Assembly: GCF_003334255.1 (NCBI RefSeq)
Contig: NZ_QOWU01000004.1
Reading direction: 5' to 3' (one strand)
Source: Escherichia coli
Lineage (GTDB): Bacteria > Pseudomonadota > Gammaproteobacteria > Enterobacterales > Enterobacteriaceae
DNA length: 64,000 nt
Below, one piece after another: positions 53,163 to 59,754 of the stretch. The notes under the pieces were generated by a model. That model was not told the DNA's origin and searched no databases. It was given only the letters and a program-made list of their open reading frames with translations. The translations under genes and the position numbers were made by a program. The stretch's first letter is position 1. Every line of letters begins with the position of its first letter.

Positions 53163-53262
53163 GGCAAACCGATCGCAACATTGAGCGCGATCGGTCCCCT
53201 CGCCCCTCTGGGGAGAGGGTTAGGGTGAGGGGAAAAGGCGGCATCGAAGCCAATCAGCCCCT
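53163..53262. repeat. GC-rich intergenic palindromic repeat (box C-like; family name uncertain)
   Basis: CCGATCGC-N8-GCGATCGG hairpin then CCCCTCTGGGGAGAGGGTTAGGGTGAGGGG; lies between convergent zntA and tusA. Confidence 0.4.
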
Positions 53263-57481: not shown

Positions 57482-58069
57482 ATGTATCGGATAGTTCTGG
57501 GGAAAGTTTCGACCTTAAGCGCAGCTCCACTGCCACCGGGTTTACGCGAGCAAGCACCGCAAGGTCCACGACGCGAACGCTGGCTGGCGGGGCGTGCATT
57601 GCTTTCGCACACGCTTTCCCCGCTACCGGAGATCATCTATGGCGAACAAGGCAAACCTGCATTTGCGCCGGAAATGCCGCTATGGTTCAACTTAAGCCAT
57701 AGCGGTGACGATATCGCCCTGCTGTTGAGTGATGAAGGCGAAGTCGGCTGCGATATCGAAGTGATTCGCCCGCGCGCCAACTGGCGCTGGCTGGCGAACG
57801 CCGTATTCAGCCTCGGGGAACACGCTGAGATGGACGCCGTGCATCCTGATCAGCAACTGGAAATGTTCTGGCGCATCTGGACGCGCAAAGAAGCCATCGT
57901 TAAACAGCGTGGCGGCAGCGCCTGGCAAATCGTCAGCGTAGACAGCACCTATCACTCCTCGCTGTCAGTCAGCCATTGTCAGCTTGAAAATTTAAGCCTT
58001 GCGATCTGCACCCCTACTCCCTTTACGCTCACCGCCGACAGTGTGCAATGGATCGATTCAGTTAACTGA
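57482..58069 (+). CDS. acpT: 4'-phosphopantetheinyl transferase
   Basis: 195-aa ORF recognised as AcpT. Confidence 0.9.
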   Translation: MYRIVLGKVSTLSAAPLPPGLREQAPQGPRRERWLAGRALLSHTLSPLPEIIYGEQGKPAFAPEMPLWFNLSHSGDDIALLLSDEGEVGCDIEVIRPRANWRWLANAVFSLGEHAEMDAVHPDQQLEMFWRIWTRKEAIVKQRGGSAWQIVSVDSTYHSSLSVSHCQLENLSLAICTPTPFTLTADSVQWIDSVN

Positions 58070-58114
58070 TCCGCCCACCCGACTGCCCATCTATTGATCC
58101 AGAACAGGTAATCA

Positions 58115-58142
58115 GTATGACGAATACTTAAAATCGTCATAC
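58115..58142. promoter_or_regulatory. NikR operator at the nikA promoter
   Basis: GTATGA-N16-TCATAC dyad, about 40 bp upstream of the nikA start. Confidence 0.85.
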
Positions 58143-58179
58143 TTATTTCCGCCATCTATTTTAATCCATTGGGGTTACC

Positions 58180-59754
58180 ATGCTCTCCACACTCCGCCGC
58201 ACTCTATTTGCGCTGCTGGCTTGTGCGTCTTTTATCGTCCATGCCGCTGCACCAGATGAAATCACCACCGCCTGGCCGGTGAATGTCGGGCCACTAAACC
58301 CGCACCTTTACACGCCTAACCAGATGTTCGCCCAGAGCATGGTTTATGAACCATTGGTGAAATATCAGGCAGACGGTTCGGTGATCCCGTGGCTGGCAAA
58401 AAGCTGGACTCATTCAGAAGATGGTAAAACCTGGACCTTCACCCTGCGTGATGACGTGAAATTCTCCAACGGTGAACCGTTCGATGCCGAGGCGGCGGCA
58501 GAAAACTTCCGCGCAGTGCTCGATAACCGTCAACGTCACGCCTGGCTGGAGCTGGCAAACCAGATTGTTGATGTTAAAGCACTCAGTAAAACAGAGCTGC
58601 AAATTACCCTGAAAAGCGCCTACTATCCTTTCCTGCAAGAACTGGCCCTGCCCCGTCCTTTCCGTTTTATCGCTCCCTCGCAGTTTAAAAACCATGAAAC
58701 CATGAACGGAATTAAAGCGCCGATTGGCACCGGACCGTGGATTTTGCAGGAATCGAAACTGAATCAGTACGATGTCTTCGTCCGTAACGAAAACTACTGG
58801 GGCGAAAAGCCAGCGATTAAAAAGATCACCTTTAACGTCATCCCGGACCCGACTACCCGCGCGGTGGCGTTTGAAACTGGCGATATCGACCTGCTGTACG
58901 GAAACGAAGGGTTATTACCGCTCGATACCTTCGCCCGCTTTAGCCAGAATCCGTCTTACCACACCCAACTGTCACAGCCGATCGAAACCGTGATGCTGGC
59001 GCTCAATACCGCCAAAGCCCCCACCAACGAGCTGGCAGTACGTGAAGCTCTTAATTACGCGGTAAACAAAAAATCGCTGATTGATAACGCGTTGTATGGC
59101 ACCCAGCAGGTCGCCGACACCCTGTTTGCCCCTTCTGTGCCCTACGCCAACCTCGGCCTGAAACCGAGCCAGTACGATCCGCAAAAAGCGAAAGCGTTGC
59201 TGGAAAAAGCCGGTTGGACGCTGCCTGCGGGCAAAGACATCCGCGAGAAAAATGGTCAGCCGCTGCGCATTGAACTTTCGTTCATCGGCACCGATGCGTT
59301 AAGCAAATCGATGGCGGAAATCATTCAGGCTGATATGCGCCAGATTGGCGCAGATGTCTCGCTGATTGGCGAAGAAGAGAGCAGTATCTATGCTCGTCAG
59401 CGCGACGGTCGTTTTGGCATGATTTTCCACCGCACCTGGGGCGCGCCATATGATCCACACGCCTTCCTCAGTTCAATGCGCGTACCGTCACACGCTGACT
59501 TCCAGGCACAGCAAGGATTAGCCGACAAACCGCTGATTGATAAAGAGATCGGCGAAGTGCTGGCGACCCATGACGAAACGCAACGTCAGGCGCTGTATCG
59601 CGACATTCTGACCCGTCTGCATGACGAGGCGGTTTATCTGCCTATCAGTTACATCTCAATGATGGTGGTATCAAAACCGGAGCTGGGTAACATCCCCTAC
59701 GCGCCGATCGCCACCGAAATTCCGTTCGAACAGATTAAACCGGTGAAACCTTAA
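58180..59754 (+). CDS. nikA: periplasmic nickel-binding protein
   Basis: 524-aa ORF with signal peptide. Confidence 0.95.

Follow-up and report, generated by a model that had tools for sequence, protein, structure and literature searches.

How is the expression of the nickel-uptake operon nikABCDE-nikR controlled from the short stretch that separates it from acpT? The window considered here is a 64,000-nucleotide stretch of Escherichia coli DNA, in which the acpT-nikA intergenic region takes up 110 bp at positions 58070..58179 of the plus strand, as shown by the list of open reading frames and by the identical MG1655 locus as annotated in RefSeq. Its borders are the acpT stop codon, ending at 58069, and the nikA ATG at 58180, and they coincide exactly with the span given in the preliminary description of this DNA. 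Almost certainly, this region serves as both promoter and operator for the nikABCDE-nikR operon of E. coli K-12, combining FNR and NikR signals. The control region is already known and well studied, and there is nothing new in its identification.

The locus itself can be identified from its neighbourhood. Across yhhT-acpT-nikABCDE-nikR-rhsB, the window does not differ from MG1655 (E. coli K-12; 100% identity), and the nikA start at 58180 corresponds to position 3,613,667 of NC_000913.3. A stretch of 1.3 kb around the operator, likewise 100% identical to MG1655, was matched in 5,426 of 5,426 complete E. coli genomes. The gene order annotated in RefSeq for the identical MG1655 locus is zntA-tusA-yhhQ-dcrB-yhhS-yhhT-acpT-nikA-nikB-nikC-nikD-nikE-nikR-rhsB.

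All genes discussed below are on the plus strand. The products of acpT, nikA and nikR were identified with NCBIfam equivalog models. The upstream neighbour acpT (57482..58069; NF007676, 395 bits) lies outside the system. The first gene under the control region is nikA (58180..59754; TIGR02294, 840 bits, and annotation), which encodes the periplasmic nickel-binding protein. It is followed by nikB, nikC, nikD and nikE (59754..63095), encoding the permeases and ATPases of the ABC transporter; their reading frames, at 59754-60698, 60695-61528, 61528-62292 and 62289-63095, agree with the annotation of the identical locus. The last gene, nikR (63101..63502; NF002815, 235 bits; TIGR02793, 225 bits), encodes the operator-binding repressor, a nickel-responsive ribbon-helix-helix protein. 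Its product matches the PDB chains 1Q5V, 2HZA, 2HZV and 3OD2 over residues 1-133 of 133 (286.6 bits, E 2e-85). The flanks named in the preliminary description, with acpT upstream, nikA downstream and nikR at the far end of the operon, are correct by the reading frames, the RefSeq annotation and the NCBIfam models alike. A minus-strand frame coding for 58 aa at 57979-58155, overlapping both the operator and the 3' end of acpT, was treated as spurious; it is not annotated in RefSeq.

The most conspicuous element of the region is a dyad at 58115..58142 (plus strand), GTATGA-CGAATACTTAAAATCG-TCATAC, with half-sites at 58115-58120 and 58137-58142 and a spacer (58121-58136) of exactly 16 bp. It occupies the positions from 38 to 65 bp upstream of nikA, and the cognate nikR is present in the same genome. 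The inverted repeat reaches past the hexamers: the arms 58114-58123 and 58134-58143 are perfect over 10 nt, and longer arms of 17 nt (58107-58150) retain 88% complementarity. A pattern search for GTATGA-N16-TCATAC on both strands of the 64-kb window returned this single match, and the exact dyad appeared in none of 100 dinucleotide-preserving shuffles of the window. When up to three mismatches were allowed, 18 matches were observed in the window against 16.7 expected; the other 17 all have at least two mismatches, and no second credible NikR site was found in the window at this threshold. Hence the perfect two-hexamer dyad with 16-bp spacing that had been noticed from the letters alone is exact, unique and absent from shuffled sequence.

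The reading of this dyad as the NikR operator also proved right, as it is letter for letter the published nikABCDE operator and stands in a locus 100% identical to that of MG1655. The same sequence at the same locus means identity, and not mere membership in a family of sites. According to the reviews PMC7055735 and PMC4486848, both citing Chivers & Sauer 2000/2002, the E. coli NikR operator in the nikABCDE promoter was defined experimentally as GTATGA-N16-TCATAC. As summarised in the same two reviews, whose sources are Chivers & Sauer 2000/2002, Bloom & Zamble 2004 and Schreiter et al. 2003/2006, Ni(II)-NikR binds this sequence at nanomolar affinity, the ribbon-helix-helix domains of the NikR tetramer enter the major groove at each half-site, and the crystal structure of the complex with the operator is 2HZV (Schreiter et al. 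2006). The regulation of nikA in vivo is nickel-dependent (PMC9434800). The site in the window does not differ from the E. coli K-12 operator (Chivers & Sauer 2000; 2HZV): it is the type example itself.

Comparison with other NikR sites places this operator among the enterobacterial ones. The enterobacterial signal GTATGAT-N13/14-ATCATAC of Rodionov and co-workers, as quoted in PMC545781, matches the consensus GTATGAtGAAT..tTAaAATCgTCATAC that we derived from 75 loci. The E. coli site has C at position 7 of the left arm (GTATGAC), whereas the enterobacterial signal has T. The NikR boxes of Delta-proteobacteria, as given in PMC545781, have another half-site, GTGTTAC. The NikR protein of Helicobacter pylori, acting on ureA, nixA and other genes, resembles that of E. 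coli in its family and in nickel-dependent DNA binding by ribbon-helix-helix domains. However, it acts pleiotropically, as an activator as well as a repressor, and lacks a clear consensus operator (PMC4486848), whereas E. coli NikR has a single well-defined one.

Upstream of the dyad lies a candidate FNR box, TTGATCCAGAACAG, at 58094..58107 (plus strand). It agrees with the consensus TTGAT-N4-ATCAA at 8 of the 10 specified positions. Both mismatches are in the right half, AACAG instead of ATCAA (58103-58107), and the left half TTGAT (58094-58098) is intact. The preliminary description had suggested that a TTGAT-containing stretch near 58095 could be a degenerate FNR half-site. The position and the role of FNR hold, the latter by published ChIP-seq (PMC3688515), with the refinement that it is the other half that is degenerate. 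This is the only FNR-like site with at most two mismatches within the intergenic region. In the whole window, however, there are 37 such sites against 29.8 expected, which is not above chance. Thus the motif alone cannot support the assignment to FNR, and the support comes from the published ChIP-seq and from conservation.

The published ChIP peaks were transferred to the window using a coordinate offset of 1,977 between U00096.2 and U00096.3, which we assume to be correct; with this offset, the FNR peak falls at about 58095, and the anaerobic sigma-70 peak at about 58141. In the original coordinates (U00096.2), the FNR ChIP-seq peak at nikABCDE is centred at 3,611,605, with a single site at -40.5 (PMC3688515), and the sigma-70 signal at 3,611,651 is 68.7 in aerobic and 1,896.9 in anaerobic cells (PMC3688515 supplements). 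Expression of nikABCDE is raised anaerobically, and the ratio of RNA in the fnr mutant to that in the wild type is 0.03-0.06 for nikA-E, a loss of about 30-fold, and 0.35 for nikR (PMC3688515). Myers et al. 2013 listed nikABCDE among the operons directly activated by FNR (PMC3688515).

One could suppose that the TTGAT box serves another regulator, of the CRP/FNR family or unrelated to it, and that anaerobic induction by FNR is indirect. Indeed, the right half-site is degenerate in all species examined, with 1-3 mismatches to the full consensus, and, for previous in vitro evidence that FNR binds at nikA, Myers et al. have the entry 'None' (PMC3688515). Nevertheless, expression depends on FNR, sigma-70 occupancy is anaerobic, and the box stands at the canonical class II distance. 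It bears no resemblance to the CRP consensus TGTGA-N6-TCACA. The FNR ChIP-seq peak, as mapped with the assumed offset, is within a few bp of the box. We therefore consider another regulator highly improbable, and treat the box as a class II activator site of FNR.

The two signals were then compared across species. A scan of 100,044 species genomes for NikA yielded 80 nikA loci. The dyad, with at most two mismatches and 16-bp spacing, was found upstream of nikA in 75 of these 80 loci from other species, and in most of them it is exact. Beyond Enterobacterales it occurs in Consotaella, Rhizobium, Fulvimarina, Halomonas and one metagenome-assembled genome of an unclassified member of Proteobacteria. 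The enterobacterial-type promoters (70 loci and the window itself, 71 in total) were anchored on the dyad and compared without gaps. In 69 of these promoters TTGAT stands at a fixed offset of -21 (21 bp) relative to the dyad, and all 71 have a -10 box of the form TAnAAT. The right half of the FNR box is degenerate throughout this set, again with 1-3 mismatches to the full consensus; strong conservation is limited to the A of box position 13, and position 12 is usually C or T. The columns flanking the FNR half-site, the dyad and the -10 box carry almost no information, so that these elements stand out as a phylogenetic footprint. Dickeya and Pectobacterium, which use hoxN instead of nik (PMC3349551), are uninformative for the comparison of FNR and nik across genera.

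These data also bear on the objection that the dyad and TTGAT match by chance and regulate nothing. The objection has some basis where FNR-like 14-mers with at most two mismatches are concerned, as they occur in the window at the chance rate given above (37 against 29.8). However, the exact dyad is absent from all 100 shuffles, it recurs in 75 of the 80 species, the offset of TTGAT is fixed in 69 promoters out of 71, and published ChIP-seq, expression and binding data point to function. Conservation and the published data already refute this objection, and its probability is negligible.

The palindrome could also be read as an RNA element, namely, as a hairpin acting mainly as the intrinsic terminator of acpT and not as a protein operator. 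In acpT read-through RNA, positions 58105-58155 may fold into a perfect 10-bp stem with additional outer pairs (-15.6 kcal/mol; z-score -5.9; none of 200 shuffles folds as well), followed by UUAUUUCC, at a distance of 46 bp from the acpT stop codon. However, the half-sites are preserved in 75 species as sequences, GTATGA and TCATAC, and not just as pairing, they are conserved where the surrounding intergenic sequence varies, and binding of NikR to exactly this DNA has been published and crystallised. Furthermore, a scan for Rho-independent terminators in 57900-58300 found none: it makes no call here because the loop is 10 nt long and the T-run is short and interrupted, the 10-bp stem having 4 G-C pairs and the tail reading TTATTTCC. 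Rfam covariance models gave no match at E <=1 on either strand of 57800-58400. Thus a terminator is very unlikely to be the main role of the palindrome, which is a protein operator; it may terminate acpT read-through weakly, but this would be at most secondary and incidental.

The positions of the two sites allow one to reconstruct the promoter. Given the published FNR position of -40.5 (PMC3688515), the centre of the FNR box at 58100.5 places the transcription start of nikABCDE-nikR near 58141 (plus strand, accurate to a few nt), and the -10 hexamer would then be TAAAAT at 58129..58134 (plus strand), within the operator spacer. The anaerobic sigma-70 peak, transferred to the window as described, points to the same start, and TAAAAT falls on the TAnAAT found in 71 of 71 promoters. 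This conserved TAnAAT is located 28-33 bp downstream of the centre of the FNR box, which is consistent with class II spacing. The -35 position, 17 bp upstream of TAAAAT, is occupied by AGGTAA, which agrees with the consensus at 2 of 6 positions. A consensus scan of 57900-58300 found no sigma-70 promoter, a result that is uninformative for an activator-dependent promoter; the poor -35 and the lack of a consensus match fit activator dependence, as expected.

In these respects nikA is similar to other class II FNR promoters, in which the site is near -41.5 (narG, dmsA, yfiD, pykA, ynfE): it has TTGAT-N4-xxCAx at -40.5, a poor -35 and a good -10, and it shares with them anaerobic, FNR-dependent occupancy by sigma-70. 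Unlike them, it has a right half, AACAG, that is degenerate across Enterobacterales, and a metal-dependent repressor overlaid on the promoter. The end of the FNR box and the start of the operator are 7 bp apart. Judging from the published -40.5 and from conservation, the NikR operator would span approximately -26 to +2, covering the -10 box and the start. With this geometry, repression is most simply explained by occlusion of RNA polymerase.

The regulation may be envisaged as follows. Under anaerobiosis, dimeric [4Fe-4S]-FNR binds TTGATCCAGAACAG, whose centre is about 40.5 bp ahead of the start, and from this class II position it recruits RNA polymerase to a promoter with a good -10 and essentially no -35. 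Once cytoplasmic Ni(II) has occupied the high-affinity sites of tetrameric NikR, the two ribbon-helix-helix dimers of the protein bind the GTATGA half-sites. The centres of these half-sites are 22 bp apart, or about two helical turns, and thus both should be on the same face of the DNA. Bound NikR would block either polymerase binding or open-complex formation, and nickel import would be switched off. As nikR closes the operon, the repressor is made partly from the promoter it represses. NikR binding to the operator, its nickel dependence, and both the occupancy by FNR and the dependence on it have been demonstrated in published work, and no observation speaks against this scheme.

A separate promoter of nikR is said to have been reported by De Pina et al. 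in 1999. The gap between the nikE stop codon and the nikR ATG is no more than 5 bp (63096-63100), and thus such a promoter would sit inside nikE. The difference between nikR RNA (0.35) and nikA-E RNA (0.03-0.06) in the fnr mutant (PMC3688515) fits a separate, FNR-independent promoter of nikR. Another observation concerns the 7-nt perfect inverted repeat TTAAAAT / ATTTTAA (58128-58134 / 58158-58164), which connects the -10 region with the nikA leader; in such AT-rich sequence it probably arose by chance.

The control region ties nickel import to the nickel supply and to the anaerobic demand for [NiFe]-hydrogenases. The nik system is the reference for structural studies of NikR, for work on metal selectivity and for nickel biosensors, and all of this is established. 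Finding the operator again shows only that the first-stage reader recognises a textbook operator from raw sequence. The analysis makes two modest additions. One is the fixed register of the footprint, in which the FNR half-site, the -10 box and the dyad are locked together in 71 enterobacterial-type promoters. The other, described below, is a TTGAC -35 element that in four non-enterobacterial nikA promoters takes the place of the enterobacterial FNR box.

The promoter also contains a candidate NarL site. The heptamer TACTTAT at 58140..58146 (plus strand) matches the NarL consensus TACYYMT perfectly, and TACTTAA at 58125-58131, overlapping the beginning of the -10 box, has one mismatch. Repression of nikA by nitrate and NarL was reported by Rowe et al. 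2005, as cited in PMC2718512; a NarL site was not detected in the published work. The two heptamers may be the site through which nitrate and NarL repress nikABCDE, but this is a weak lead and a rather doubtful one. The 7-2-7 arrangement is absent at these two heptamers of the nikA promoter. TACTTAT overlaps the right NikR half-site, which supplies its TAC, and the probable start, and just 23 of the 71 orthologous promoters retain a heptamer match at this position. If the candidate were real, about 55 bp would serve three regulators, FNR, NikR and NarL, of which the last two would either compete for the same bases or occupy them jointly.

Within E. coli the control region varies little. It is present at no less than 95% identity in all 5,426 complete genomes; for the 100-bp region 58080-58179, 5,210 genomes reach at least 99% identity and the remaining 216 have 95-99%, and 5,157 of the 5,426 share an identical core of 57 bp (58090-58146). 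We aligned the two most divergent E. coli matches among those listed, one variant strain, the GTDB representative of E. coli, E. albertii and E. whittamii. All substitutions among these Escherichia sequences are outside the FNR 14-mer and the NikR 28-mer.

Two Escherichia loci have insertions between the operator and nikA. In Escherichia sp. MOD1-EC7003 (L004:1369-1478), a highly self-complementary element of 110 bp (RNA fold -30.3 kcal/mol) is located between the NikR operator and the nikA ATG and shifts the dyad from -65 to -177. In appearance it resembles an ERIC/IRU-type repeat. In Escherichia sp. E1V33 (L002:1031-1458), an insertion of 428 bp with three tandem REP-like units directly follows the NikR operator, which is thus about 500 bp upstream of nikA; beside nikA there is a second copy of a part of the right operator arm (AATCGTCGCCATAC). 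The repeat unit of this insertion matches positions 53185-53244 of the window.

Outside the enterobacterial-type set, the FNR half-site was found in none of the six non-enterobacterial loci that have the dyad. In four of these six (L066, L068, L069 and L070: Consotaella, the unclassified Proteobacteria metagenome assembly and two Rhizobium), TTGAC is seen at the -35 position, approximately 10-25 bp upstream of the dyad; it was not seen in the remaining two, from Fulvimarina (L073) and Halomonas (L075). This suggests that the enterobacterial lineage either acquired FNR dependence or lost the -35 element. Finally, the region upstream of nikA in Stappia sp. WLB 29 (L071, approximately 1415-1441) contains GTATGA-TGTTATTGAAATAAC-TCACAC. 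It looks like a putative NikR-type dyad with a spacer of 15 bp instead of 16, which the scan with fixed spacing missed.
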